Part shown: piece by piece, positions 4,909-43,249 of the stretch
Numbering within the stretch: the stretch's first letter is position 1
Layout: the number at the start of each line of letters is the position of its first letter
NCBI GenBank assembly: GCA_016790965.1
Contig: JAEUNZ010000001.1
Span: 27,095-91,094, forward strand
DNA length: 64,000 nt
Direction: 5' to 3'
Source: Dechloromonas sp.
GTDB lineage: Bacteria > Pseudomonadota > Gammaproteobacteria > Burkholderiales > Rhodocyclaceae
The notes under the pieces: model-generated
Database searches by the model: none
Seen by the model: the letters and a program-made list of their open reading frames with translations, nothing else
Told to the model about the DNA's origin: nothing
Program-made: the position numbers and the translations under genes

Positions 4909-5849
4909 TCATCGGTTCGCGTCGCGCCGGTCACGCCCGGTGCCTGGTTCTTTTCCTGGCACTCGGTGGACCGGTTGCCTGGGCTGATTCGCCTCTGAAA
5001 GGGAGTCTTGAAATCGCGGCCGGCCACGAAGAACTCACCAGTCCGCTGGTGCGCGTGGCTCCCTCCGGCCCGCTGTTGCGAGTGGAAGGGCTCAACCGCC
5101 TGGCGGGCAGCAGCCTCCGCATCAATGGCTCCGTCCTCCGCGACTGGACCCTGGACGGCGGCACCGGCATTTCCGCTTCGGCGCGGGGTGACGTCCTGCG
5201 CGCGCCGGCTGCTCCGGATCTGGACTGGGGAATCGCCGCCGCTGACGTGATGCTGCGCCATCCCTGGGCGGGCGCGACCTGGGGCATCGGACCGAGCGTC
5301 CAGCGACTCTGGGTCGCGCGACGCAGGTTTCGGGATACCGTTGGGGTCCAGGCAGACGCGCTTCGCGTTGATGGGAGCGGCCATTGGTCCCTGGCCGGCG
5401 ATTGGGCGCAGACGCAGCACTCGGGGGAAAACTCCGATTTCAACAGTGCTATCGCCTTGGTCAGTCTGCAGCGCCGAATCAGCGATCCCCTGCCCGGCCT
5501 CGAATCCATGGACCTCGAGGGCGGCCTCTTGCGCGAACGCAATCGCGCGGGGCTGCCGGAGCTGGGGAGTCGAAGTGCCTATCTGCGCGTGACCCTCGCC
5601 GGCAAGCGATGGGGCTACGACTGGTCCCTGGGGGGCATGACCCAGCGCTCGCGGTTCGATGCCACGGTGCTTGATCCGTTGCCGGCCAGAAGGGATCGCT
5701 TTCGCTCCCTCGACCTGTCGGTCTCCCGGGACATCGGCGAAGGCGCCTATGTCAAAGCCGAAGCCAATTTCGCCCGGAACGAAGCAAACTCGCCCCTCTT
5801 CGAGAGCCGCTACCGCCAGGTCGCCCTGACCCTGGGTTTTGCCTGGTAG
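4890..5849 (+). CDS. Putative outer-membrane beta-barrel protein (start uncertain)
   Basis: Track ORF 4836..5849. A signal-like segment (RCLVLFLALGGPVAWA/DSPLKG) is followed by alternating strand pattern and a C-terminal aromatic residue (..QVALTLGFAW), typical of OMPs. GTG at 4890 or ATG at 4836 could be the start; both overlap the preceding small ORF. Confidence 0.55.
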   Translation: MPPRRLIIGSRRAGHARCLVLFLALGGPVAWADSPLKGSLEIAAGHEELTSPLVRVAPSGPLLRVEGLNRLAGSSLRINGSVLRDWTLDGGTGISASARGDVLRAPAAPDLDWGIAAADVMLRHPWAGATWGIGPSVQRLWVARRRFRDTVGVQADALRVDGSGHWSLAGDWAQTQHSGENSDFNSAIALVSLQRRISDPLPGLESMDLEGGLLRERNRAGLPELGSRSAYLRVTLAGKRWGYDWSLGGMTQRSRFDATVLDPLPARRDRFRSLDLSVSRDIGEGAYVKAEANFARNEANSPLFESRYRQVALTLGFAW

Positions 5850-5856
5850 CTTCGCT

Positions 5857-6915
5857 TCAGCGTACCTTGATTTCGGTCCAGAGCCTGGACATCAGACGGC
5901 GCTGCTTCGGGTCAAGGTCCCGCAGCATTTCCAGGCGTGCGAGGTCGTCCTGAGTCGGGAACAGCCCCCGCTCTGCGGCCACCTCGCGCAGGATGTGGGG
6001 AACCGCGGCGGCGTTGGGATTGCCGGCGCCAATCAGGTTGGAGACATCGGCCGCGTTGGCGCCGTCGAGCATGAAATCGATGAAGCGGTGGGCGAGGTCG
6101 GGTCGCCGCGACGAGGTGTGGATGACGAAATTGTCCACCGCCAGCACGGCTCCCTCCTTGGGGATGGCGAAGCCGATGGCGAAGGGCCGGCGGGCGGCCT
6201 TGGCGTCCTCCCGGGCGCGGAACATGTCGTTGGAGTAGCCGTGGGCGACCCAGATGGTGCCGATGGCGAGTTCCTTGATGTAGGTGCTGTTGGAGAAGGT
6301 AGCCCAGTAGGGCTTGGCGCGAACGATGAGGTCGCGGGCAGCCCGCCAGTGGGCGGCGTCGGTGTCCTGGGCCGAGTGGCCGAGATAGCGCAGTGCTGCC
6401 GCCATCAGCTCGCGCTGGCTGTTAAGCACGGTCACCCTGCCCTTCAGCTTTTCCAGGTACTTGGGTTCGAAGATCAGGGCCCAGGTATCGGTCGGGAGAT
6501 GGAGTTCCCGCAGCTTGTCGGCGTTGTAGCCGATAAGCGTCACCGTCGTCGCGTAGGGGATCGAGTAGCGGTTGCCGGGGTCGTACCAGGCGTTGACGTA
6601 GGCCGGGTTGAGGTTGGTGAAGTGCGGTAGCAGCGCTTTGTCGAGGGGCTTCAGCTCCTGCTTGCGGATCAGGGTCTGGACGGCGTTGCCGGTGGGCACC
6701 AGCAGGTCGTAGCCGGCGGCGCCGGCCTCCAGCTTGGCCAGCATCTCCTCGTTGTCCGAGTAGTAATCCTGTTTCAGGGTGCAGCCGCACCACTTCTCGA
6801 AGCGCTCTGCCGTGTCAGCCGAGATGTAGTTGTTCCAGTTGTAGAGGTAGAGGGTGTCGCCGGCCCCCGCCGGCAAGGCGGCCAGCCAAAGAAGGAGCGC
6901 GGCGACGAGCCTCAT
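5857..6915 (-). CDS. potD: Spermidine/putrescine ABC transporter periplasmic binding protein
   Basis: Real start is the ATG at 6915 (MRLVAALLLWLAALPAGAG signal peptide), overlapping the potC stop (ATGA). PotD/PotF-family sequence (LYLYNWNNYI.., ..GYSNDM..). The upstream 250 aa of the 603-aa track ORF are out-of-frame read-through of potC. Confidence 0.9.
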   Translation of the reverse strand: MRLVAALLLWLAALPAGAGDTLYLYNWNNYISADTAERFEKWCGCTLKQDYYSDNEEMLAKLEAGAAGYDLLVPTGNAVQTLIRKQELKPLDKALLPHFTNLNPAYVNAWYDPGNRYSIPYATTVTLIGYNADKLRELHLPTDTWALIFEPKYLEKLKGRVTVLNSQRELMAAALRYLGHSAQDTDAAHWRAARDLIVRAKPYWATFSNSTYIKELAIGTIWVAHGYSNDMFRAREDAKAARRPFAIGFAIPKEGAVLAVDNFVIHTSSRRPDLAHRFIDFMLDGANAADVSNLIGAGNPNAAAVPHILREVAAERGLFPTQDDLARLEMLRDLDPKQRRLMSRLWTEIKVR

Positions 6916-7688
6916 CGGCTGCTCTTCAGGGTGTCCGGCGCGAAGCGGGCGGCCAGGGCGATGAGGCTGAGGGTCAGGGCCATGAGCAGGGTCGACACGG
7001 CATTGACCTCCGGCGTTACCGCCACCTTGATCATTGAATAGATCTGTAGCGGCAGGGTCGACATGCCTACCCCGGCGACGAAAAAGGTGATGACGAAATC
7101 GTCGATGGAGAGGGTGAAAGCCATCAGGTAGCCGGCGACGATGCCGGGCAGGATCAGCGGCAGGGTCACCCGGCGGAAGGTGCGCCAGGGGGTGGCGCCC
7201 AGATCCCGGGCGGCCTCGAAGAGGCTCTCGTCCATGCCCGCCAGGCGGGCGCGCACGATGATGGCGACGAAACCGATGGAAAAGGTGATGTGGGCGGCGA
7301 GGATGGAGAATAAGCCCAGGGTCAGGTCCAGCATCTGGCGGAAGAAGAGCAGCAGCGAGACGCCGAGCAGGATTTCCGGCATCGCCACCGGCGTTAGCAC
7401 CAGGAAGGGCAACAGTTTTGGCCGCCAGCGGTGCATGGCGATGCCGGCCATGGTGCCGAGCACGGTGGCAACGGTACTTGAAACCACCGCGATGAACAAC
7501 GAGTTGCCCGCCGCCTGCAGCATGTTGTCGTCGGCCAACAGTTTGCCGTACCAGGCGGTGGTGAAGCCCACCCAGGAAGCGTTCAGTTCCGAATCGTTGA
7601 AGGAAAACAGAACCACCACGGCCAGCGGCACGTAGAGGAAGGCGTAGGTGGCGAGCCCAGCAGCCCACAGAAAGGGGGAGCGGCTCAT
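6912..7688 (-). CDS. potC: Spermidine/putrescine ABC transporter permease
   Basis: 258 aa, 6 TM, with the EAA-type loop (FEAARDLGATPWRTFRRVTLPL) of binding-protein-dependent permeases. Position in the potABCD order supports the call. Confidence 0.9.
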   Translation of the reverse strand: MSRSPFLWAAGLATYAFLYVPLAVVVLFSFNDSELNASWVGFTTAWYGKLLADDNMLQAAGNSLFIAVVSSTVATVLGTMAGIAMHRWRPKLLPFLVLTPVAMPEILLGVSLLLFFRQMLDLTLGLFSILAAHITFSIGFVAIIVRARLAGMDESLFEAARDLGATPWRTFRRVTLPLILPGIVAGYLMAFTLSIDDFVITFFVAGVGMSTLPLQIYSMIKVAVTPEVNAVSTLLMALTLSLIALAARFAPDTLKSSR

Positions 7689-8646: not shown

Positions 8647-9706
8647 CGTGCCTCCATTCCACGCTCACCCGGTCGCCGATTTCGTGAAAGCGCGCCTTGC
8701 CCGGGGCGGCGTTGGTGGTCAGGGCGTCCAGGGTGACGCCGTTGTCGAGCTGCACCTTGTATACCGTCACGTCGCCGAGGTAGAGATACTCCCGCACCGT
8801 GCCCACGAAATGGTTCTTCAGTGCGGCCTGCTCGGTGCGGTGGGAAACCCGCAGGTGCTCCGGCCGCAGGGCCAGGGCGCCGCGGCTGCCGGCGGCAGCC
8901 TCCGGATGGGCCGGCGCGGCGATCTCGCCCAGGCCGGCGGCGGCCAGGCGCAGGCCGTGGAGGGTCGATTCCACCACCGCCGCGTCGATCAGGTTGATGG
9001 TGCCGATGAAGTCCGCCACGAAGCGGTTCTTCGGTGCCGAATAGAGCACCTCCGGCACGTCCAGTTGTTCCACCCGGCCGGCGTTCATGACGGCGATGCG
9101 GTGGGAGAGCGCCAGGGCCTCCTGCTGGGCGTGGGTGACGAAAACGAAGGTCACGCCGACCTCCCGCTGCAGGGCGATCAACTCCCCCTGCATGCGCTCC
9201 CGCAGTTTGGCGTCCAGAGCCCCCAGGGGTTCGTCGAGCAGCAGCAGGCGCGGCTTGTTCACCAGCCCCCGGGCCAGGGCCACCCGCTGCTTCTGGCCGC
9301 CGGACAGCTCGTGGGGAAAGGCGCGGCCCTTCTCCTCCAGATGCACCAGGGCCAGGGCTTCATTCACCCGCCGCTTGATCTCGTTGTCGGACTTGCCCGC
9401 CATCTCGAGGGGAAAGGCGATATTGCCGCTCACCGTGAGGTGTGGGAACAGCGCGAAACTCTGGAACACCGTATGCACCGGCCGCTGCTCCGGCGGAATC
9501 CCCGCCAGGGGCCGCCCGTCTAGGAAGAGCTCGCCCTCGTCCGGCGCGTCGAAGCCCGCGATCATGCGCAGGATGGTGGTCTTGCCGCAGCCGGAAGGCC
9601 CCAGGAGGGTAAAGAATTCACCGGCCTCAATATCGAGGGAAACCGCCTTCACCGCTTCGAGCTCCCCGAAGCGTCGGGTGATGTTGCGCAGTTCGAGGAG
9701 GGCCAT
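8621..9706 (-). CDS. potA: Spermidine/putrescine ABC transporter ATPase
   Basis: Walker A GPSGCGKTT, Q-loop, ABC signature LSGGQKQRVALAR, Walker B LLLLDEPL, and a C-terminal TOBE-like regulatory domain. Confidence 0.92.
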   Translation of the reverse strand: MALLELRNITRRFGELEAVKAVSLDIEAGEFFTLLGPSGCGKTTILRMIAGFDAPDEGELFLDGRPLAGIPPEQRPVHTVFQSFALFPHLTVSGNIAFPLEMAGKSDNEIKRRVNEALALVHLEEKGRAFPHELSGGQKQRVALARGLVNKPRLLLLDEPLGALDAKLRERMQGELIALQREVGVTFVFVTHAQQEALALSHRIAVMNAGRVEQLDVPEVLYSAPKNRFVADFIGTINLIDAAVVESTLHGLRLAAAGLGEIAAPAHPEAAAGSRGALALRPEHLRVSHRTEQAALKNHFVGTVREYLYLGDVTVYKVQLDNGVTLDALTTNAAPGKARFHEIGDRVSVEWRHDAGVYLAS

Positions 9707-9865
9707 GCCTCGGGCGCCAGCTTTTTCTTTGCGATAGCTCCATTATAGATTGCTGATGCGCTTTTCCTGCACCATTGGACGCAATGGAGCCGCAGCCTTG
9801 GCCGCCCTGATCGGCACCAAACGTCGTGACGCGGGCTGCAATTCATCCACTCCGCAGTTGTGCGA

Positions 9866-10440
9866 GTCAAGTTGTGCAGATGCTGATCAGGTAGTCGGTC
9901 GGCTTTCTGCGCGGTGTCGGTGACCCGGAGCGCGTCGTGGCACTGACATCGCGCGGCCGAATCAGGCGGCCATCCTCAACTGCTCCTTCTTCTGTTCCGA
10001 AAGGAACACCATGTTCAGGTACCGGCTGTCGTTCAGCCAGGTCTCGTGGGTCTCGACACAGAGGGCCCGGATCAGCCGCAGGCACGAGGTCTCGTTCGGG
10101 AAGATGCAGACGACCCGCGTCCGGCGCTCGATCTCCTTGTTCAGACATTCGAGCATGTTCTTTCTCTTCATATGCTTGTGGTGTGCCCGGTGATGCCCCT
10201 AGATGCTCGGTCATCTCACTCTCCAGAACCTCCTGCAGCGCTTCCTTCATCATCGACTTCATCAGGTCAGGGCCGCCCGCCACCAGTCCTTCTAACGACG
10301 ATAACTTCGCCTTAATCTTCCCCGCGGTCATGGTTTGCCCTCCTTAGGGGTCAAGGTCGATCTAGACAATCAACCTTTCACCATGACCACCCTTCACCGT
10401 TCCGGCAAAGAGGCATTTGCACACAATGCTGCACACTACC
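9866..10440 (-). mobile_element. Internally deleted IS256-family insertion sequence remnant (non-autonomous)
   Basis: The transposase N-terminus (..DLMKSMMKEALQEVLESEMTEHLGA) and C-terminus (..NMLECLNKEIERRTRVVCIFPNETSCLRLIRALCVETHETWLNDSRYLNM) lie in different frames only ~200 bp apart, so the catalytic core is missing. Imperfect terminal inverted repeats (..GTTGTGCAGATGCTG.. at the left; reverse complement of ..GCATTTGCACACAATGCTGCACACTACC at the right). No target-site duplication seen. Confidence 0.75.
9962..10331 (-). pseudogene. IS256-family transposase pseudogene (N- and C-terminal fragments only)
   Basis: Track ORFs 9867..10331 and 9962..10171 carry the two conserved ends of mutator/IS256 transposases. 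The DDE core (~300 codons) is absent. Confidence 0.75.
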
Positions 10441-33775: not shown

Positions 33776-33909
33776 GGGGCGCCTCCTCTCCAGGCCTGGG
33801 GGTCTCTACCAGCTTAGACGAGAGTCGCCGGGGCCGGTTCGGAAGCTTTGCCGGACGGTCGAAATCCGCCCCCGGATGGCGTGCGGTGATCGGGGGGCCG
33901 GCCTCTGGC

Positions 33910-35391
33910 TTACCCCAGCGCTGTCGCAACCGCCCGAAAACTCTCCAGCCCGGCTTCCAGATTTTCGATGATTTCACCGGCCAGTTCATCCGGCTCGGGC
34001 AGGTTATCCAGATCGGCCAGGCTCTTGTCCTTCAACCAGAAAATATCGAGGCTGGTCTTGTCGCGGGCGACGATCTGCTCATGGCTGAACTTGCGCCAGC
34101 GGCCTTCCGGATTGGCTGTCTCGTGCCAGGTTTCGGCGCGCTCGTAGCGGTTCAACGGGTTGTAGCAGGCGACGAAATCCTGCAAGTCCTCGAAGCGCAG
34201 CGGCTTCTTTTTCAGCGTATGGTGGATGTTGGTGCGATAGTCATAGACCCACACCTCCCACGTCCACGCCTCCTTGCGCGCCGGCTGGTTATCGAAGAAC
34301 AGCACGTTCGCCTTGACGCCGTTGGCGTAGAAGATCCCCGTCGGCAGGCGCAGGATGGTGTGCAGATCGGTCGTCTCCAGCAACTTGCGGCGCACCGTCT
34401 CGCCCGCACCGCCCTCGAACAGCACGTTGTCCGGCACCACCACGGCGGCGCGCCCCGTCGTCTTCAGCAGGCTGCGGATATGCTGCACGAAATTGAGCTG
34501 CTTGTTCGAGGTCGTCGCCCAGAAATCCTGGCGGTTGTAGGTCAGGTCATCACGATCCAGCTCGCCGTCCTCATTGGTGAACACCATGCTGCTCTTCTTG
34601 CCGAAGGGCGGGTTGGCCAGCACGTAGTCAAAGCTTTCCTGCGGCGGGGCGATCAGCGCGTCGTTCGGCGAAATCGGACTGTCCCCGTCGATCTCACCAA
34701 TGTTGTGCAGGAACATGTTCATCAAGGCCAGCCGCCGCGTACCGGCGACGATCTCGTTGCCAAAAAAGGTATCGTGCTTGAGGAAAGCCCGCTGCTCGCG
34801 GTCCATGCCGGGGTAGGTGTCGACCAGGAAATCGTAGGCGGCGAGGAAAAAGCCGCCGGTGCCGCAGGCCGGATCGGCAATCGTCTTTCCCGGCAGCGGC
34901 CGCACGCACTCCACCATCGCCCGGATCAGCGGGCGCGGCGTGAAATACTGCCCTGCTCCCGACTTCGTATCCTCGGCGTTACGCTCCAACAAGCCCTCGT
35001 AGATGTCGCCCTTGACGTCCGCCCCCAGCGTCACCCAACTGGTTTCGTCGACCATGTCGATCAACCGTGACAGCTTGGCCGGGTCCTGGATCTTGTTCTG
35101 CGCCTTGGTGAAAATCTGCCCGAGCAGCCCCGGCTTGTTGCCCAGCTCCCGCAGCACCGTCACGTAATGCACTTCCAGCGCCGCCCCGCGCACAGACTTC
35201 AGGCTCGCCCAGCCGAGGTTTTCGGGAATCCCGATCTTGCGGCTGTACGGCGGCCGACCGTACTCGTCGGCCATTTTCAGGAAAATCAGGTAAGTCAGCT
35301 GCTCCAGGTAGTCGCCATAGCCGACGCCGTCATCGCGCAGCGTGGTACAAAAGCTCCAGACACGGGAGACGATGGATGCGGTTGCGTTCAT
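33910..35391 (-). CDS. hsdM: Type I restriction-modification system DNA methyltransferase subunit
   Basis: HsdM_N domain (..YLEQLTYLIFLKMADE..), SAM motif I DPACGTGGF, and catalytic motif IV NPPFG. Confidence 0.92.
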   Translation of the reverse strand: MNATASIVSRVWSFCTTLRDDGVGYGDYLEQLTYLIFLKMADEYGRPPYSRKIGIPENLGWASLKSVRGAALEVHYVTVLRELGNKPGLLGQIFTKAQNKIQDPAKLSRLIDMVDETSWVTLGADVKGDIYEGLLERNAEDTKSGAGQYFTPRPLIRAMVECVRPLPGKTIADPACGTGGFFLAAYDFLVDTYPGMDREQRAFLKHDTFFGNEIVAGTRRLALMNMFLHNIGEIDGDSPISPNDALIAPPQESFDYVLANPPFGKKSSMVFTNEDGELDRDDLTYNRQDFWATTSNKQLNFVQHIRSLLKTTGRAAVVVPDNVLFEGGAGETVRRKLLETTDLHTILRLPTGIFYANGVKANVLFFDNQPARKEAWTWEVWVYDYRTNIHHTLKKKPLRFEDLQDFVACYNPLNRYERAETWHETANPEGRWRKFSHEQIVARDKTSLDIFWLKDKSLADLDNLPEPDELAGEIIENLEAGLESFRAVATALG

Positions 35392-35829
35392 GTTGATGAA
35401 TCTTTCAAATAAATTCGGTGCGGGAGCCCCGGTGGTTTGGCGTCAAACCACCGGGGTTAAACGAGCCTAGGTGCTTAGCTCCGGTGGTATACGGGTCAGC
35501 TCCGGTGATATGACGTTGGCTAAAGCGCATAAATTTATGCGCCTTGGCGTATAGGCGGCGTATAGAATTCTTTATTCTTCAAATAAAACTTTGTTTATTA
35601 GACATTTTTTTGTTGCACCAAACTGGTCGTTATTTATGCGCCGAGGCGCATAGCGTCCGGTTTGCGGCTTCGCTAGGCTTTCAGATTGAAGTCATCGTTA
35701 CCATGCATCGTCAGCCGTGAATCAAGAAATTCAGCGCACACGGAAAATGCACAACAATTGGATTTATTGGACTTTTCCGCCACATAACTTCTCCACCCAG
35801 CGCTGGTGAATCAAAACAGGATCAAGAAA
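35392..35829. repeat. AT-rich, palindrome- and repeat-dense spacer upstream of hsdM
   Basis: Hairpin CCCCGGTGGTTT-N6-AAACCACCGGGG (35427..35456). Direct repeats AGCTCCGGTG(G/A)TAT (35477..35490, 35497..35510). Perfect 18-bp palindromes GCGCATAAATTTATGCGC (35525..35542) and TATGCGCCGAGGCGCATA (35635..35652). No ORF of plausible size. Confidence 0.6.
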
Positions 35830-37284
35830 CTACGCCCACCCGGGAACATACCCGCCTCTCGGGTGCTCAGGATCGGCAATCCTGATCAGATTAGCCTCCA
35901 GCGCCTTGTTGATGACCGTGCTTGCCTGCGCCGCATTCCGGCTGGCAATGCCCAAGCGGGCGCATAAGGTGGCGTTTTTCATCTTGTCGCCGCTGAGAAA
36001 CTTGAACACCGCGTGGAAGTAACAAGCGCGGACGCGCTCGTCGGGTGTCATGTCGGCAAACATGCGCGGTCCATACATAACAACCTGCGTAGCATGGTTT
36101 TCGGCGCGGAACCATGGCGCTGGAAGCTGGTGTAGTTCGACCAACTCAATCACCTTGTCCAGACCGCTCCCCTGTTCCTCACAGAAATTCATCCGCCGCA
36201 TCAAGCTGGCCAGCGCCTCGTTGCGGGAGCGTGGCGGCAAATCCACCATCCGATCGGGTTGAACCAGCGGGATGCCTGGATTGCTGATTTCAATGCGGTC
36301 GCTGAACAATTCGATCAGCGGCCCCGCCCCGGTAATCGTCATGTCCTGGTGAATCATGGCATTGGCGACGAGTTCGCGTATCGCCAACTCGGGAAACATC
36401 GAATGCGATTCCCGTAGCGCAGCCCCGATGTGCTCGTTCTTCGGTTGCAGATCGTTCAGGTAAGCGACCAGCCCCTCGAACCCCACCGCATACCCCTTCT
36501 GTCCATCATGGCGATGCTTGACTGTGGTCGCGCGGGTTTTCCCCTCATAGGCAACAAAGCGAATCGCCTTGCGGGAAATCCCATCGTCGAACTCCGACAA
36601 ACGGTTGGCAAACAGGATGGCGCCCAGATTCGTGATGTTCCACCGCTCGCCGACATCTTTCACTGCCAGCCGGTCCACCACCAGCTTCTCGAAAATTCCC
36701 TGCCGGTTGTCCGGCAGAGGCTGCTTGGTCAGACGGAAATACTGGCTGTAGTCGAGCAGCGCCAGAACATCGTCGCCCGAAACATACTGGCGGGCAATGC
36801 CGCCCTCCCAGCGATAGGGGCGCATGCGATCAATCAGGGCCTGGTAACGCTCGGGATAATCCGTCAGCTTCGGCGTTGCGCTGCCAATGCGGATGTAGGG
36901 CGTTCCATTGAAGCAGACTGGCGCCCCGGTTGCCGCCGGGATTTCCAGCAAAACAACCCGCCCATCGGGATGGCTGACCTCCCGGAAGGCAAAAGCGATG
37001 CTCGGCTGCAAACGTTGCGCCAGCCAGAACTGCAAGGGTTGATTCCCCATTTTTTCCGACTCGGGGTGGAAGCCCGTGCCAATCACGCGATGACTGCCAT
37101 CCTCAATCCCCCAAAGCATGAAGGCCGTCTCCCGCCCCACCATGCGGGCAGCGTTGGAAAGCGCAGAGCAACGCAAGCCGATCATCTCCGGATCGGCATT
37201 GTTCGCCTTGAACTCCAGCCACTCCATTTCGTCGGGCTGAGCGCGGAGTTCATTCACCAGATCAATATCGCGGGCTGCGCTCAT
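35830..37284 (-). CDS. AlbA_2 (Schlafen-like) + HATPase_c_4 + C-terminal wHTH protein embedded in the Type I R-M operon
   Basis: N-terminal ..EMEWLEFKAN.. (AlbA_2 'divergent AAA' signature) and central ..AIRELVANAMIHQDM.. (HATPase_c_4 signature). The C-terminal helix-rich ~80 aa look like a DNA-binding domain. The start overlaps the hsdS stop (ATGA). Confidence 0.7.
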   Translation of the reverse strand: MSAARDIDLVNELRAQPDEMEWLEFKANNADPEMIGLRCSALSNAARMVGRETAFMLWGIEDGSHRVIGTGFHPESEKMGNQPLQFWLAQRLQPSIAFAFREVSHPDGRVVLLEIPAATGAPVCFNGTPYIRIGSATPKLTDYPERYQALIDRMRPYRWEGGIARQYVSGDDVLALLDYSQYFRLTKQPLPDNRQGIFEKLVVDRLAVKDVGERWNITNLGAILFANRLSEFDDGISRKAIRFVAYEGKTRATTVKHRHDGQKGYAVGFEGLVAYLNDLQPKNEHIGAALRESHSMFPELAIRELVANAMIHQDMTITGAGPLIELFSDRIEISNPGIPLVQPDRMVDLPPRSRNEALASLMRRMNFCEEQGSGLDKVIELVELHQLPAPWFRAENHATQVVMYGPRMFADMTPDERVRACYFHAVFKFLSGDKMKNATLCARLGIASRNAAQASTVINKALEANLIRIADPEHPRGGYVPGWA

Positions 37285-38747
37285 TGCGTGGCTCCTACTG
37301 TTGGACGTGTTTTCTTCTTGCCGGGGGGTGCCGACAAACGCTCGGCGCGGATGCGTTCGAGCAGGGTGGTGGCGGGTTCTTCGTTTTTGGCCTGTTTGAC
37401 CAGTTGACCGCAGAAAGCCTTTTTCAGGATGGACTGGCGCAGCGCGTCGGCCTGTTGCAGCGCGGTGGCGAGGGTTTGGTCGAGTTGGTCGGCTTCGGAG
37501 AGTTTTTCGGCAAGCAGTTTTTCTATTTGTTGCTGTTCTTGCTCACTGCAAAGCGGATAAGCAAAACCTTCAACGGACTTGGTGTTGAAGTGAATCAACG
37601 CAACCCCAACCATCTTTTGTTTTACGCGCCCCTGCGTCTGCCAGTTCATGTAGTAGGCCAACAAATGCGAGGAAACATGTCGCGGCGCTTTGACAATAAC
37701 GAGATCAGAGCAATTTGCCTTACCCAAATGCTCGGGGATTACACAAGAAACGCCAATAGAACCTGAGCGAACCACGACCACATCCCCCGCAGACAAGGCG
37801 GACTTGCTCAAGGACTGATGGAATCCTTCTGATATGAACTTTAAGCCTTCGGGATCAAAACGGTTTTCTCGAACATTCTGCGAACGCAGAAATGGCACCC
37901 CCTGTTCGATGTATTCGTCCTTCATTGGGCCTACGTAACCGACCGTTACTCGGTCCACCAACTCACCAACGCGAATCCAGCCCCACCCCGCCGGCAGTTC
38001 AGGCAACTCGGCGAGTTCTTCGGCGGTGAGCGGAGGCAGGGGCTTGGGGGGTTTGGGTTTGGGGCCTGCTTGGCCGGCGGTTTGCCAGTCGGCGAGTTGT
38101 TGCTGGTAGCGGGCCTGGCGTTCGCGGGCGATGCGTTGTTGCAGGGCGACGGCGGTTTCGAGCTGGTCGGCGTGAGCGGCGCGCCAGGCGGCGGTGAGCT
38201 TGCCTTCGAAGGCATTCTTGAGCAGCGACTGGCGATAGACCTTGAGCTGTTCGCGGGCGGTATTCAGGCTGGCCACGCCCTGATCGAGTTCGGAAAACAG
38301 TTCCTCGATCTTGGAGACGATGCGGTGTTGTTCGGCGAGTGGAGGAATCGGCAGCAACGATTTGGCAAGGTGCTGGTAGTGCCGCGCATAGCCGTTGTTT
38401 GGAATCTTGGTAACGAGATAGCGGACAAACTGCTCCAGCAACTTTGGCAAGATACAGGCGCTCGGCTGAAGAACCTTTACGCCATCAGCACCCGGAGCAA
38501 ACGCTGTGTTGACCAATTTCACTACGCGAGTGTGGTCCCCAAATACGATAGCTGGCAGCTCGCAATCAATCACCATCGCAGTGTCATCGGTGTAACCGCC
38601 AACGTAGTCTTGCCCTTGGTCGAACACAGGGAACTTCCCGCTTGGAAGGTAGTTTTTCTGCGGGATTTTCTTGTCGGTAAGGGTAACGTTACGTACAGCT
38701 TCGCTGACTGGCAGCAACACCCATGAGGGAGGAAATTCCTCCATCAC
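37281..38747 (-). CDS. hsdS: Type I restriction-modification specificity subunit
   Basis: Two target-recognition domains, visibly less GC-rich, are separated by a helical central conserved region (PPLAEQHRIVSKIEELFSELD..) with a second conserved helix at the C-terminus (..EQEQQQIEKLLAEKLSEADQL..). The start abuts the hsdR stop (GTGATG). Confidence 0.88.
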   Translation of the reverse strand: MMEEFPPSWVLLPVSEAVRNVTLTDKKIPQKNYLPSGKFPVFDQGQDYVGGYTDDTAMVIDCELPAIVFGDHTRVVKLVNTAFAPGADGVKVLQPSACILPKLLEQFVRYLVTKIPNNGYARHYQHLAKSLLPIPPLAEQHRIVSKIEELFSELDQGVASLNTAREQLKVYRQSLLKNAFEGKLTAAWRAAHADQLETAVALQQRIARERQARYQQQLADWQTAGQAGPKPKPPKPLPPLTAEELAELPELPAGWGWIRVGELVDRVTVGYVGPMKDEYIEQGVPFLRSQNVRENRFDPEGLKFISEGFHQSLSKSALSAGDVVVVRSGSIGVSCVIPEHLGKANCSDLVIVKAPRHVSSHLLAYYMNWQTQGRVKQKMVGVALIHFNTKSVEGFAYPLCSEQEQQQIEKLLAEKLSEADQLDQTLATALQQADALRQSILKKAFCGQLVKQAKNEEPATTLLERIRAERLSAPPGKKKTRPTVGATQ

Positions 38748-41572
38748 GCCACCAACGCCTCATTCAACTCATCCAGCAACAGGTCCATGCCCTCGCCGAA
38801 CAGTTGCCACATTTTCCCCAGCCCGCCCTGGGCGTCGAAGGGGCTGTAGTCGAGGTCGCTGCGCTCGACGTGGCAGGAGTGGGCGATATGGTCGCGGAGC
38901 ATGCGTAGCCAGTTCATCTGTTCTTCGTTGAATTTGTCGGTGCCGCCGGCGTGGTGCTGCATGATCCAGGTCTGGAAGTTCTTGCGCACGGTGTCGGCGA
39001 ACGGGGTGATTTTGGCGTCCAGGCCGCAGACGCGGCGGATCAGGGCGAGCAGCGCGGTCAGTTCCTGTTCCGGCGGGGCGCCATTGTAGCCGTCGAGCTG
39101 GCCGTAGGCTTGCCAGATGCGCAGCGGAGCGAGTTTGGGTTTGTCGGCTTTGAGCTTGTCGAGTACCTGGCGCACCAGCTTCAGCGTGACTTCGCGCCGT
39201 CGCCAGGGTTGGGCGAAGAAGATGGTGAGTGCTTCGATTTCATCCCGGTTGGCGGCCAGCCAGTCGGCGAATTCGCCGGTCAGCGCTTCGGCCTGCGCGG
39301 CGCTGTCCTGGCTCCAGCCGGCGTAGGTGACGCTATCCAGATTGTCGTGGTCGATGGTCTGTTCTTTTTCGCGGCGGATGGTGTCGATCAGTTCGATGAA
39401 TTCGCCGTTGAGCAGCGCCGCGGCTTCGCCAACCAGTTGTTGCTGGGCTTGGTCGCGCAGCGTGTCGCCGGGGTCGTTGCCCGCATTTTGCCCAAAGCGC
39501 AGGCCGGCGAGTTCGAGGGCGCGGGCTTCGATGAGGTCGCCGTCGATGGCGTTGAACAGTTTGCTGACCAGGTGGCTGAGTTCGACGCCGCCGGCCGCTT
39601 CGCGCAGGCGGCGCTGGTCGTCGGCGTCGAGCTGCTTGTTGAGGCGAGCCAGACGGCCGGCCAGCGAGGAGACGCTGTCGGTGTCGGTGGCGCCCATCAG
39701 GATGCCCATGGCGAGGTCTTTGAGCGGCACACCGGGCTTGGTGATCAGTGGCTGGCTGGCGGTCTTCAGCGATTTGGTGACGCCGATGGCGTCGACGATC
39801 ACGTAGTGGGTCTTGGCGGTTTTGGCGCTGGGCGTGACTTTGCGCAGCTCGTCCATGTCCAGCGTGCGGGTGCCGCGGCCTTTCATCTGCTCGAAGTAGT
39901 TGCGGCTTTTGACGTCGCGCATGAAGAGCAGGCATTCGAGCGGTTTCACATCGGTGCCGGTGGCGATCATGTCGACGGTGACGGCGATGCGCGGGTGGTA
40001 TTCGTTGCGGAACTGGGCGAGGACGGATTTGGGGTCTTCGCCTTCCTGCACGCTGCCGTCGGCGAGCTTTTTGTCCTGCGCGGCGCGATAGGTGACTTTC
40101 TTGCAGAAGGCGTTGCCCTCGCCGAATTCCTCGCGCACGGTCTGGATGATGTCGTCGGCGTGGCTGTCGGTCTTGGCGAAGATCAGGGTCTTCGGCACTT
40201 CATCGCGGCCGGGGAAGATGGCCGGCAGATTGTCGCGGAAGGCGCGGATGACAGTGCGGATCTGGTCCGGGTTGACGATGTCGCGGTCGAGTTGTGTGGC
40301 GGTGTAGGCGGCGTCCTCGTCCTGCTGTTCCCAACGCTTTTTGCGGGTCAGGCGCTCGCGCTTTTCGACTTGCTGCTCGGCGGCAATAACGGCGCCTTGC
40401 TGGGTGATGCGGGTGTCGATGAGGTAGATCTCGTTGCCGACGTTGACGCCGTCGGCGACGGCTTTTTCATGGCTGTAGTCGCTGACGACGTTCTTTTTGA
40501 AGTAGCCGTAGGTGCGGTTGTCGGGCGTCGCGGTGAGGCCGATCAGGCTGGCGTCGAAGTAGTCGAGCACCTGTTGCCAGAGGTTGTAGATGCTGCGGTG
40601 GCATTCGTCGATGAAGATGAAATCGAAGAACTCGGGCGGGATTTTGGCGTTGTAGGCGACCGGGGCAGGGGCTTTGGCCAGGGTCAGTTCGGCCGGGTTG
40701 ATTTCTTCGGTGGCTTCGTCGAGTTCCTTGTCCTGCAGCAACGCGTAGAGGCGCTGGATGGTCGAGATGCAGACGTCGGCGCCCTTGTCGACGAAGCTGC
40801 TTTTGAGCCGCTGGACGCTGTAAAGCTCGGTGAATTTGCGGTTATCGTCGATCGGCACGTAGGCCATCATTTCCTGCTCGGCCTGCTCGCCGAGGTTTTT
40901 GGTATCAACCAGGAAGAGCACGCGCTTGGCGTCTGCGTGCTTGAGCAGGCGGTAGATACTGGTGATGGCGGTGTAGGTCTTGCCGGCGCCGGTGGCCATC
41001 TGGATCAGGGCGCGCGGCCGGGCTTCGCGGAAGGATTGTTCGAGGTTGGTGATCGCCGTTTCCTGGCAGTCGCGCAGGCGGAGTTCTTTGGCCGGCTGGT
41101 GCTCCGGGTTGAGCGGCGGCAGTTCGGCGAGGCGTCCGCGCAGGCTGTCGCCTTCGGCCATCCAGTCGCGCAGGGTTTCAGGGCGGTGGAAGCTGAACAC
41201 CTCGCGCGAACGCGGCTTGGGGTCGCGGCCATCGGTGAAGCGGGTGACGATGCCAGTGGCTTCGTAGAGGAAGGGCAGCGGCTGCTGGTTATTGACCCAC
41301 TTGAGTTTGGCGGCTGCGTAGCCTTCAGTTTGCGGCTCGTGGGCAGTCAGGCGCTGGCCTTCTGATTCGCGCTTGGCTTCGATGACGCCGACGGCTTTTT
41401 TGTCGACGAAGAGTACGTAGTCGGCCGGGCCGGCATCGGTTTGCCACTCGCGCACGGCCTGTCCAGCCCCGACGCCGAAATCGATTTTCTTTTGCACCGC
41501 CCAGCCGGCAGCACGCAATTGCGCATCGATGCGGTCGCGGGCTTGTTGCTCGGGATTCTGGTTTTCGCTCAT
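38744..41572 (-). CDS. hsdR: Type I restriction enzyme R subunit (HSDR_N nuclease + SF2 helicase + EcoEI_R_C-like tail)
   Basis: Start at the internal ATG (MSENQNPEQQARDRIDAQL..). Nuclease-like N-domain (ADYVLFVD..VGVIEAKR), helicase motifs I (MATGAGKT), II (DECH) and VI (QMKGRGTR). Confidence 0.92.
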   Translation of the reverse strand: MSENQNPEQQARDRIDAQLRAAGWAVQKKIDFGVGAGQAVREWQTDAGPADYVLFVDKKAVGVIEAKRESEGQRLTAHEPQTEGYAAAKLKWVNNQQPLPFLYEATGIVTRFTDGRDPKPRSREVFSFHRPETLRDWMAEGDSLRGRLAELPPLNPEHQPAKELRLRDCQETAITNLEQSFREARPRALIQMATGAGKTYTAITSIYRLLKHADAKRVLFLVDTKNLGEQAEQEMMAYVPIDDNRKFTELYSVQRLKSSFVDKGADVCISTIQRLYALLQDKELDEATEEINPAELTLAKAPAPVAYNAKIPPEFFDFIFIDECHRSIYNLWQQVLDYFDASLIGLTATPDNRTYGYFKKNVVSDYSHEKAVADGVNVGNEIYLIDTRITQQGAVIAAEQQVEKRERLTRKKRWEQQDEDAAYTATQLDRDIVNPDQIRTVIRAFRDNLPAIFPGRDEVPKTLIFAKTDSHADDIIQTVREEFGEGNAFCKKVTYRAAQDKKLADGSVQEGEDPKSVLAQFRNEYHPRIAVTVDMIATGTDVKPLECLLFMRDVKSRNYFEQMKGRGTRTLDMDELRKVTPSAKTAKTHYVIVDAIGVTKSLKTASQPLITKPGVPLKDLAMGILMGATDTDSVSSLAGRLARLNKQLDADDQRRLREAAGGVELSHLVSKLFNAIDGDLIEARALELAGLRFGQNAGNDPGDTLRDQAQQQLVGEAAALLNGEFIELIDTIRREKEQTIDHDNLDSVTYAGWSQDSAAQAEALTGEFADWLAANRDEIEALTIFFAQPWRRREVTLKLVRQVLDKLKADKPKLAPLRIWQAYGQLDGYNGAPPEQELTALLALIRRVCGLDAKITPFADTVRKNFQTWIMQHHAGGTDKFNEEQMNWLRMLRDHIAHSCHVERSDLDYSPFDAQGGLGKMWQLFGEGMDLLLDELNEALVA

Positions 41573-41704
41573 GGGCGGCGGAGCGCTTATTGGCAATCCG
41601 GCGATGATAGCGGAAGGCGCGACCGGTCTGGATGCCAGGCGAATCTCTCGCTGCCCGGAGGCCACCTTCGGCGCGAATTGTCGGTTACGACGAAACATCA
41701 GGGC

Positions 41705-41728
41705 GCGGATGCTTGTCTCGGCATCCGC
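41705..41728 (-). terminator. Hairpin after the symporter gene
   Basis: GCGGATGC-N8-GCATCCGC is a perfect 8-bp stem 10 nt after the stop at 41738, followed on the minus strand by ..GATGTTTCG. Confidence 0.45.
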
Positions 41729-41737
41729 GAAACCTGG

Positions 41738-43249
41738 CTAGCGCTTGGGATGCTCGTGCAGGGGTTCGGCGTGGTGCGTCTCCGCCGCCGCGCGGTGATG
41801 CAGGGCGGCGTGGAGGTCTTCCTGGGGCGTGGCCCGACCGATCCACTGGGGAAGCAGGGAGCCGAGGAGCATTCCGACGAAGCCTACGGCCAGGCCGATG
41901 AGTTGGGGCGGTACCGGGCTTTCCTCGATCAGGAACTCGACCAGCAACCAGGAACTGAGTCCCCCGACGATGGACGCCAGCGCCCCCTGGGAAGTGGCGC
42001 GCTTCCACAGCGCCCCGGCAAAGAGAGGCACGAAAGCGCCGGCCAGGGTGACCTTGTAGGCGTTTTCCACCATCTTGAAAATGGAGGCGTTGGAGTAGAG
42101 GGCAAAGCCGAGCACGACGCAGGCGAAGCCGACGATGGAAAAACGCATGACCCGCAGGAAAGCCCGGTCGCCCAAGCGCGGGAACATGGGGCGGATGATG
42201 TTCTCGGCGAAGGTGACGGAAGGTGCCAGCAGGGTGGCCGACGAACAGCTCATGATGGCCGAGAGCACGGCGCCGAAGAAGATGACCTGGGCGAAGAGCG
42301 GTGTGTGGTTCAGGACCAGCAGCGGCAACACCTTCTGGAAATCCTCCGGGGCGTCGGAAGCGAGCATCGGCCCATACTGGCCGGGGTCGATGAGGGTTGC
42401 CGAATAGGCGATGAACATGGGCACGAAGCAGAAGCAGAAGTAGATCGATGCTCCCAGGATCGAGCCCCAAATTGCGACCTTGGCGCTCTTGGCCGAAGTG
42501 ATGCGCTGGAAGACGTCCTGCTGCGGGATGGAACCCAGCATCATGGTCACCCAGGCCCCCAGGAAGGTGATCCACAGCCAGGGATCGGGTTCGGGGAAGA
42601 ACTCGAACTTGCCGGCGGCGGCCGCGTGGTCGATGACGACACCGGCGCCGCCGGTCTTGTCGGCCATCACCGTGGCGATGAAGAATAGGCCGCCCATGCT
42701 CACCGCCATCTGCACGAAGTCGAGCACCGCTACCGACAGCATGCCGCCGAAGGTGGTGTAGGTGAGCACCACCGCTGCGCCCAGGACCATGCCCGCCGTC
42801 TGGCTCAGGCCGTCGTTGGTCACCACGTTGAGGATGAGGCCCAGGGCCTTGATCTGGGCGGACACCCAGCCCAGGTAGGAGGCGACGATGCAGAGGGTGG
42901 TGATGACCTCGACCGTGCGGTTGTAGCGCAGGCGGTAGAAGTCGCCCAGGGTGATGATGTTGAGCTTGTAGAGGTAGCGGGAGAAGAAAATGCCGGCGAT
43001 GACGAGGCACATGGAGGAGCCGAAGGGGTCGGCCACCACCCCACCCAGGCCCTCACGTACGAAGGTGGATGAGGCACCGAACACGGCTTCGGCACCGAAC
43101 CAGGTCGCAAACACGGTGGCGGTGACCACCGGTAGCGGCAGGTGTCGGCCCGCGACGGCGAAATCCTTGGTGTTGTGCACCCGGGTGGCGGCAAAGAGGC
43201 CGATGCCGATAGACACCAATAGGTAAAGCGCCACGAACCAGACCAGCAT
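41738..43249 (-). CDS. Sodium:solute symporter family transporter
   Basis: 503 aa, ~13 TM. SSF N-terminal motifs (DFAVAGRHLPLPVVTATVFATWFGAE.., ..TLGDFYRLRY). Confidence 0.88.
   Translation of the reverse strand: MLVWFVALYLLVSIGIGLFAATRVHNTKDFAVAGRHLPLPVVTATVFATWFGAEAVFGASSTFVREGLGGVVADPFGSSMCLVIAGIFFSRYLYKLNIITLGDFYRLRYNRTVEVITTLCIVASYLGWVSAQIKALGLILNVVTNDGLSQTAGMVLGAAVVLTYTTFGGMLSVAVLDFVQMAVSMGGLFFIATVMADKTGGAGVVIDHAAAAGKFEFFPEPDPWLWITFLGAWVTMMLGSIPQQDVFQRITSAKSAKVAIWGSILGASIYFCFCFVPMFIAYSATLIDPGQYGPMLASDAPEDFQKVLPLLVLNHTPLFAQVIFFGAVLSAIMSCSSATLLAPSVTFAENIIRPMFPRLGDRAFLRVMRFSIVGFACVVLGFALYSNASIFKMVENAYKVTLAGAFVPLFAGALWKRATSQGALASIVGGLSSWLLVEFLIEESPVPPQLIGLAVGFVGMLLGSLLPQWIGRATPQEDLHAALHHRAAAETHHAEPLHEHPKR

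Follow-up and report, generated by a model that had tools for sequence, protein, structure and literature searches.

Among 5,930 prokaryotic Schlafens (pSlfns), the class that joins a Schlafen domain to a histidine-kinase-type ATPase domain and a helix-turn-helix (HTH), called Slfn-HisKinase-HTH, accounts for 19.2% (Taboada et al. 2026, PMC13056530). The Pfam pair PF04326 and PF13749 has also been named the 'Schlatpase' supradomain; it was found in 60,692 proteins, with an HTH in more than 90% of the tails, and ATP binding by PF13749 drives a tetramerisation that reconstitutes the active Schlafen architecture (bioRxiv 10.64898/2026.05.29.728809). In this family, the Ex4(E/D)xK motif is defined as the catalytic, or Schlafen, active site (PMC13056530; PMC13462974). 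The present analysis concerns a gene of this kind, here called X, which lies in a type I restriction-modification (R-M) block of Dechloromonas sp., on a 64,000-nucleotide stretch of contig JAEUNZ010000001.1 (positions 27,095 to 91,094; hereafter the window, with positions counted from its first letter). X appears to be a portable cassette. Its stop codon is followed by two copies of a short repeat, the box, placed around an integration host factor (IHF) site; the type of box varies with the predicted recognition helix of X, and the same box occurs singly in many phages.

The sequence-only reading of the window had regarded the role of such proteins next to R-M genes as not established. As a claim of novelty this falls, since the R-M association of the family is already published: Schlatpase modules occur in R-M operons either stand-alone or fused to HsdS, the fusions being reported in Poribacteria (bioRxiv 10.64898/2026.05.29.728809); a cluster of proteins with Schlafen, ATPase and DNA-binding parts (cluster 7) is 'tightly associated' with R-M (PMC13462974); and a survey of bacteriophage exclusion (BREX) loci termed the same architecture a backup suicidal effector (PMC12839542). 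A second-defence-layer role, which the sequence-only reading had offered as one possibility for X, was inferred for the family in papers of 2026 (PMC13462974, cluster 7; PMC12839542). The pSlfn HisKinase-HTH class shares with X the Pfam pair, Ex4ExK, a C-terminal HTH, a length of ~485 aa and a setting in defence islands or R-M loci, whereas the papers on it contain no 3' box-IHF-box module, box/helix covariation, type I cassette swap or solitary phage boxes. As far as the searched literature shows, the module, the helix covariation and the phage boxes are undescribed.

Other described systems resemble X in part. RzAgo, the SLFN-pAgo of Runella zeae, has a Schlatpase module like that of X and senses its targets by an Argonaute core and RNA guides, whereas X has no Argonaute and carries a predicted sequence-specific winged helix at the sensor position. 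The CRISPR-associated Schlafen, Cash, has the same single-lobe Schlafen domain and E-D/E-K active site as X, cleaves tRNA and is activated by oligomerisation (PMC13462974); it is switched by cyclic tetra-adenylate (cA4) via a Csx15 domain, in place of which X has a GHKL domain and winged helices. In type I operons, the slot between hsdS and hsdR is known to hold accessory defence genes, namely PrrC in EcoprrI (PMC12707154), DarTG2 (PMC12255303) and TgvAB (bioRxiv 10.1101/2024.04.04.588119). PrrC is an NTPase-regulated tRNA nuclease that is not homologous to X and needs its R-M partner, whereas X appears portable and occurs alone.

Profile searches bear out the architecture that had been proposed for the 484-aa product: SLFN_AlbA_2 (PF04326) matches residues 19-139 with 45.7 bits (Pfam cut-off 25.3, E 1.1e-11) and HATPase_c_4 (PF13749) matches residues 319-403 with 77.2 bits (cut-off 26, E 9.7e-22). 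The two strings quoted in that proposal, EWLEFKAN and IRELVANAMIHQD, are present as residues 21-28 and 302-314. The nuclease motif reads E19-MEWL-E24-F-K26, in agreement with the catalytic Ex4(E/D)xK pattern, and in an alignment of 109 homologs with 33-96% identity to X these three residues are each at least 90% conserved, which suggests a Schlafen RNase domain with an intact active site. In the same alignment, E304 and N308 are invariant and N335, G337, G372 and G374 are at least 90% conserved; on our reading, the first pair would correspond to ExxxN, the N-box motif of GHKL ATPases, and N335/G337 and G372/G374 to the two glycine-rich boxes of this domain. With PF04326, the Ex4(E/D)xK motif, PF13749 after the Schlafen domain and a C-terminal HTH, X can be placed in the known pSlfn HisKinase-HTH, or Schlatpase-HTH, class. 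X is not covered by any NCBIfam model, and its only PADLOC v2 match is at chance level.

The AlphaFold model of X computed from the 109-sequence diverse alignment has a predicted local distance difference test score (pLDDT) of 94.4 and a predicted template modelling score (pTM) of 0.87; it supersedes a poor earlier model built from 39 close homologs (pLDDT 61.7). In a Foldseek search of the PDB, X is matched over its full length by DIP2311 of Corynebacterium diphtheriae (3lmm, E 1e-20), an uncharacterised structural-genomics protein of 583 aa with 17-18% identity to X, which is its best full-length structural match and also its only sequence match in the PDB (E 9.5e-5). The nuclease domains of SLFN14, SLFN13 and SLFN11 match at ~1e-4, and histidine-kinase catalytic domains and pyruvate dehydrogenase kinases at 6e-4 to 1e-2. 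At the C-terminus, the model places helices at residues 414-430, 437-444 and 448-463 and then a beta hairpin, so that residues 414-481 form a predicted winged helix. A probable winged helix had been suggested at this place from the sequence; it agrees with the model and with a weak, below-threshold Pfam match to Fic-like_C (E 0.004). By their secondary structure in the model, residues 170-225 look like a second winged helix.

A word-indexed search returned at least 7,955 relatives, the best 120 being 74-96% identical, and an exhaustive search returned 6,997 clusters at 50% identity with E<=1e-3, of which 697 had E<=1e-30. Some fragments aside, the best 150 relatives are ~485 aa long. As the sequence-only reading had anticipated, public annotations of these proteins are vague ('ATP-binding protein', 'predicted HTH transcriptional regulator', 'RecG'). 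The RecG label is not borne out, as domain scans with Pfam and NCBIfam find no superfamily-2 helicase family in X and Foldseek finds no helicase fold.

Genomic contexts were compared for 9 genome and 80 metagenome loci with X homologs 58-98% identical (one genome copy 43%), to which the contigs of two further named proteins were added; 81 loci are non-redundant. Individual loci are cited below by L numbers. Close homologs (58-98% identity) follow hsdS in about half of them. The gene upstream of X encodes HsdS in 39 of 73 cases, the gene downstream encodes an EcoEI-type HsdR in 28 of 58 and HsdM in 4, and type I genes or their relics were detected by tblastn in 52 of the 81 loci. S and X share 4 bp at their junction in 23 loci and 1 bp in another 5. 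The genes usually stand in the order M-S-X-R; in Aeromonas, this block is cargo of an island with integrase, AlpA and primase genes. The R-S-X-M order of the window is common only to L002, L017 and L018. Co-occurrence with hsdS and hsdR, which had been put forward as something to look for across genomes, is thus frequent but not obligate.

X is also found outside R-M operons. In Malikia spinosa (L014, VYSB01000006.1), a 78%-identical X stands among housekeeping genes; a 51%-identical homolog adjoins a cyclic-oligonucleotide-based antiphage signalling system (CBASS) operon; and Roseobacter plasmids carry 62%-identical copies beside a large methyltransferase. The P2-like Burkholderia phage Musica (L102, OM638608.1) has a 75%-identical X at 6001-7452, in the accessory region after the integrase. 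This copy is annotated as a shorter 'hypothetical protein' from 6166, with a small opposite-strand open reading frame (ORF) over its 5' end. Since the alignment of the full 484-aa frame begins at residue 1, the deposited gene model has probably been cut short. Just upstream of the stand-alone X of L014, a frameshifted relic of the first ~90 hsdM codons occupies 4967-5223, and at L008 the last ~89 hsdS codons remain as a relic (9684-9950) before a stand-alone X; in both, the R-M genes have been lost and X and its two boxes are intact. In complete genomes of E. coli, similarity to X is limited to a 131-nt patch.

The clearest sign of portability comes from the comparison of the window-type operon with the Aeromonas-type operon, in which X is 76% identical, whereas M is 31-34% and R 26% identical and the gene order differs. 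The DNA similarity between the two operon types extends from ~5 bp ahead of the X ATG to no more than 25 nt from the stop. Since these borders are gene-precise and M and R are divergent, X is a cassette of the size of one gene, which has passed between type I systems that are only distantly related and has landed after hsdS each time. The earlier description of X as 'hard-wired' into the restriction operon therefore stands for about half of the loci, in which hsdS precedes X, but not for the copies that stand alone or reside in a phage, nor for a cassette that can be swapped.

These contexts also bear on an alternative in which X would act as a guardian in the manner of PrrC, kept latent by physical association with the type I enzyme via HsdS and freed as an RNase once that enzyme is inhibited by an anti-restriction protein of a phage. 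X does occupy the slot used by prrC, DarTG2 and TgvAB, its translational coupling to hsdS is conserved, and the HsdS-fused modules of Poribacteria would fit such a partnership. Nevertheless, the M, R and S partners served by 76%-identical X proteins are only 24-34% identical, and the cassette swap argues against a co-evolved physical interface of X with any of them. Intact copies stand alone, some beside decayed R-M genes, one in a P2-like phage and another beside CBASS, and scans with Pfam, NCBIfam and PADLOC find no PrrC/RloC family (ABC-type ATPase with anticodon nuclease) in X. We consider this alternative unlikely.

The box is found 3' of X in 76 of the 81 loci. It has the form TTCTTGAT-N4-T(T/C)TTGAT, that is, 19 nt with two direct 7-nt half-sites 11 bp apart. 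Its first copy, R1, starts 2-4 nt past the X stop in 56 loci, and the second, R2, lies 98-100 nt beyond R1 in nearly all loci. No box was found 5' of X, stray matches elsewhere in the 838 kb of X loci number about a dozen under loose matching, and R1 is the sole box match in the 64-kb window. Between the boxes, a perfect IHF consensus, WATCAANNNNTTR, is present in 32 of the 76 loci at a fixed 61-64 nt from the start of R1, against a background of 0.003 per segment; apart from this conserved centre, the inter-box sequence is unalignable. Stand-alone loci, the phage copy and the plasmid copies have kept the module just as intact. In four loci (L005, L092, L093, L095), three or four boxes follow X with a period of ~110 nt, which suggests that the box-spacer unit can be reiterated. 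In the window, L002, L017 and L018, the second half-site of R2 is decayed. A structured RNA or terminator between the boxes was considered and rejected (no Rfam match, no consistent hairpin, median z -0.16).

Controller (C) proteins of R-M systems are small HTH proteins that bind palindromic C-boxes upstream of their own gene and of the R gene. X is not of this type: it is a 484-aa multidomain protein, and its boxes are direct repeats 3' of the gene, with none upstream. A looser alternative is that X serves mainly as a transcription factor that times or tunes the downstream gene, mostly hsdR, its nuclease and ATPase being sensory or vestigial. In M-S-X-R loci, the box-IHF-box module lies directly upstream of hsdR, with R2 ending 10-60 nt before the ATG; the winged helix varies with the boxes; X would be made only after M and S are translated, in a delay logic like that of C proteins; and the historical annotation is 'HTH transcriptional regulator'. 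We nevertheless hold it to be improbable, as the nuclease and ATP-binding residues are strongly conserved, both boxes are perfect in stand-alone loci with a convergent next gene (e.g., L014, L025, L044, L054), and in the window the downstream gene is hsdM, R2 is decayed and no promoter is detected in the spacer.

In homologs of 33-50% identity, the stop is again followed directly by two or three phased half-sites, and a second box usually comes 76-129 nt further downstream; their half-sites differ from those of close relatives: TTGCTTGC, TGCTTGA, AACTTGC, CATGTAAC, TTCATGTC, GATTTGCT, TTATTTGAC and GTTCAT. The box type is tracked by residues 450-453, the first of the third C-terminal helix. 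They read NA(A/S)Q throughout the 82 TTGAT loci. The three loci with AACTTGC boxes have S(A/S)SG, the two with CATGT boxes have NYPM and NYTA, and the three with GTTCAT boxes have KAAI. L086, which belongs to the TTGAT clade by overall identity, has NSPQ together with TAAC boxes. The simplest reading of this covariation is that X itself binds the boxes as DNA. In L009, a metagenome-assembled genome of Hyphomicrobiales, the 43%-identical X has an in-frame stop after about residue 72 (~10215) and is likely a pseudogene or a sequencing error; its two boxes, both GATTTGCT and 88 nt apart, are kept despite this stop.

The same boxes occur in viruses. The consensus 19-mer TTCTTGATCGGGTTTTGAT is found exactly in 67 IMG/VR contigs (L134-L200), a variant with a TGGG spacer in 18 and the CCTG variant of the window in 16 (L203-L236 together), which gives 101 viral contigs with exact boxes; two composition-matched controls, one reversed and one codon-permuted without stop codons, were found in 0 and 0 contigs. 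None of the 67 consensus-box loci has an X homolog. The consensus and TGGG variants represent 72 distinct phage contexts, in which conservation extends one base further on each side to give a 21-nt motif and in which there is neither an IHF site nor a second box. With strict half-sites, 63 of the 67 consensus loci contain one box; it was loose matching that had made phage genomes look 'littered' with boxes.

Of the 58 distinct consensus contexts, 35 fall within ORFs; all three phases are represented, and the proteins are unrelated (portal, terminase, integrase, endolysin and two giant ORFs). A conserved peptide behind the boxes was rejected on account of the three phases. The sense-to-antisense split of 6:29 fits the 1:3 ratio of stop-free frames, and antisense pairing with phage mRNAs at the RNA level was rejected for this reason; the fit indicates that the motif acts as double-strand DNA and not as a signal in RNA or peptide. 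This enrichment of the presumed binding site of X suggests that phages gain from the box, for example as a decoy. A more far-reaching proposal, which we make tentatively, is that the HTH of the commonest bacterial Schlafen class is a sequence-specific DNA reader with an IHF-bent cognate box pair at the 3' end of its gene, that the same 21-bp box has been acquired singly and in any frame by many unrelated phages, and that box DNA is the ligand which switches the nuclease. In that case, the boxes of phages would serve either as a signal sensed by X or as decoys that hold X on DNA in a silent state, and decoys would be more in line with the enrichment. Solitary CRISPR repeats are used by phages as anti-CRISPRs, and decoy boxes would be a DNA counterpart of these.

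In phage P1, clusters of TGATCA/G hexamers flank an IHF site in the pac site, and the module of X has a like layout, with phased TGAT(C)-containing repeats either side of an IHF site over ~120-160 bp. The likeness is of layout only, as the module has no terminase and its repeats are paired direct 7-mers. The phage box was also rejected as a pac site, with only 5 of 58 contexts in terminase or portal (packaging) genes, no IHF site and no second box. That the module is a recombination or packaging site, and X a site-specific DNA-binding nuclease that moves or packages the cassette, is very unlikely: the gene-precise borders, the pac-like repeat clusters and the 101 exact phage contigs against none for the controls speak for it, but no box lies 5' of X, Foldseek finds no recombinase or terminase fold in X, those Schlafen domains that have been characterised are RNases, and the boxes in phages come singly, without an IHF site and with no concentration near terminase genes.

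We therefore favour, with moderate confidence, a reading in which X is an autonomous accessory Schlafen cassette whose winged helix reads the boxes flanking the IHF site and which provides a second, abortive layer of defence through cleavage of RNA (tRNA). Portability is apparent from the contexts, and X is probably also autonomous: it is slotted after hsdS and co-translated with it, and would not depend on any particular R-M enzyme. By analogy with RzAgo, the only studied Schlatpase, the GHKL domain would drive an ATP-dependent assembly of dimers or tetramers that builds the active nuclease. The winged helix would most likely bind both boxes, each with its pair of direct half-sites, and an X oligomer would form on bent DNA immediately 5' of the following gene, which is hsdR in most loci and hsdM in the window. 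A pair of boxes with two half-sites each, joined by an IHF bend, would suit the dimer-of-dimers assembly of Schlatpases. Box DNA would then control or tether the enzyme, in whichever direction this control acts, and the most likely output would be the cleavage of RNA, presumably tRNA.

Several points weigh against this reading. The covariation of box and helix comes from few independent lineages and is confounded by shared ancestry, and a factor other than X could read the boxes. In the clade of the window, any control of the downstream gene may be weaker, given the decayed half-site of R2 and an insertion of ~190 bp before hsdM. The X-hsdM spacer has no predicted sigma-70 promoter, and no terminator is consistently present between the boxes (median z -0.16). 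The RNA evidence for the block, given below, is drawn from assembled contigs in which DNA may be included. In an E. coli phage panel, two Slfn-HisKinase genes were not protective (PMC13056530), and a demonstrated activity for the exact architecture of X is absent from the literature.

Table 1. Positions in the window of gene X, its predicted domains, its 3' module and the surrounding type I R-M block.
Feature	Position	Strand	Basis or remark
Gene X, Schlafen(AlbA_2)-wHTH-like-GHKL ATPase-wHTH protein (wHTH, winged HTH)	35830..37284	minus	ORF, 484 aa, ATG start; Pfam PF04326 + PF13749
Predicted Schlafen/AlbA_2 nuclease domain, residues 19-139, E19-x4-E24-x-K26	36868..37230	minus	Pfam; motif conservation
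Predicted GHKL (HATPase_c_4) ATP-binding domain, ~residues 265-405	36070..36492	minus	Pfam; conservation; Foldseek matches to kinase catalytic (CA) domains and PDK4
Predicted C-terminal winged helix-turn-helix, residues 410-484; recognition helix 448-463 (RNAAQASTVINKAL)	35833..36057	minus	Secondary structure of the model
Box R1, TTCTTGAT-CCTG-TTTTGAT, two direct 7-nt half-sites 11 bp apart	35810..35828	minus	2 nt after the X stop
IHF-like site AATCCAATTGTTG	35752..35764	minus	12/13 positions of WATCAANNNNTTR
Box R2, TTCTTGAT-TCAC-GGCTGAC	35710..35728	minus	Repeat family D2; second half-site decayed
ATGA overlap, X start/hsdS stop	37281..37284	minus	ATG 37284-37282, TGA 37283-37281
AGGAG Shine-Dalgarno of X	37292-37296	minus	7 nt 5' of the X ATG
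hsdR, EcoEI_R_C type	38744..41698	minus	ResIII + EcoEI_R_C domains
hsdS, specificity subunit, translationally coupled to X	37281..38747	minus	Methylase_S; PADLOC Specificity_I 5e-108
hsdM	33910..35391	minus	N6_Mtase 2e-67
Rest of X-hsdM spacer	35392..35709	minus	~190-bp strain-specific segment + palindromes
R-S-X-M block, 7,834 bp, single insertion/deletion unit	33906..41739		Between arginase/aminotransferase gene and sodium:solute symporter gene

The features of the locus are given in Table 1. The block reads hsdR, hsdS, X, a 438-bp spacer and hsdM, all on the minus strand. The overlap of the X ATG with the hsdS stop had been correctly noticed from the sequence; it was taken to mean that X is made stoichiometrically with R and S, which goes too far, as an overlap implies co-expression only and X has its own strong ribosome-binding site. 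With its ResIII and EcoEI_R_C domains, HsdR is type IB-like. From its first ATG, the hsdR ORF encodes 984 aa; homologs align only from about residue 40, the Aeromonas-type HsdR has 804 aa, and the true start may be further downstream. Within hsdS, 471 bp at 37505-37977 are exchanged for 486 unrelated bases in a 97%-identical contig from another activated-sludge sample, which is an hsdS allele with a different target-recognition domain, still joined to the same X gene.

The genes flanking the block are housekeeping genes, with no integrase or tRNA among them, and the G+C content is 0.55-0.60 within the block vs 0.63-0.72 outside. One metatranscriptome contig connects 33905 directly to 41740 and skips the whole block. 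This joint was not found in four DNA metagenome runs; in one of the four, sequencing depth is lower across the island than in its flanks. A part of the population apparently has an empty site. The window sequence is present at 100% identity in activated-sludge and bioreactor metagenomes. Metatranscriptome contigs span X, the junction of S and X (37231-37421), the 3' end of X with 196 nt beyond it (35634-36155) and the spacer into hsdM (35363-35778); they lend weak support to transcription across the block, as they are assembled and may contain DNA.

The spacer downstream of X had been proposed as the place where X might act as a regulator. This idea finds unexpected, partial support in the box-IHF-box module, which follows the stop codon and varies with the winged helix; the palindrome-rich part, which probably caught the attention of the sequence-only reading, is strain-specific. 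A segment of ~190 bp, at roughly 35440-35630, is absent from L002, L017 and L018, relatives in which X is 93-98% identical; it has no second copy in the window and could be a small inserted element. It contains or borders two TATGCGCC-NN-GGCGCATA palindromes, the palindrome GCGCATAAATTTATGCGC and a perfect 13-bp hairpin (35427-35456); palindromes lie at 35536-35553 and 35635-35652. The TATGCGCC-NN-GGCGCATA palindromes and the hairpin were rejected as operators, as they lie in or edge a segment that is missing from close relatives and are not repeated elsewhere in the window.

No bacterial Schlafens are more abundant than the Schlafen-ATPase-HTH proteins (19% of pSlfns according to one survey, more than 60,000 Schlatpases according to another), which are found within R-M and BREX loci of many phyla. 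More generally, a 19-21-bp box that lies beside X genes and varies with their recognition helix is a candidate DNA ligand for these proteins, which makes the question of their trigger directly testable. The earlier negative phage tests could be due to the absence or presence of the relevant box in the phages of the panel, or to constructs separated from the 3' module. The exchange of X, with gene-precise borders, between distant type I systems illustrates how R-M operons acquire second-layer effectors. If the solitary phage boxes are functional, phage and host would interact through them in a new way, at the level of DNA.

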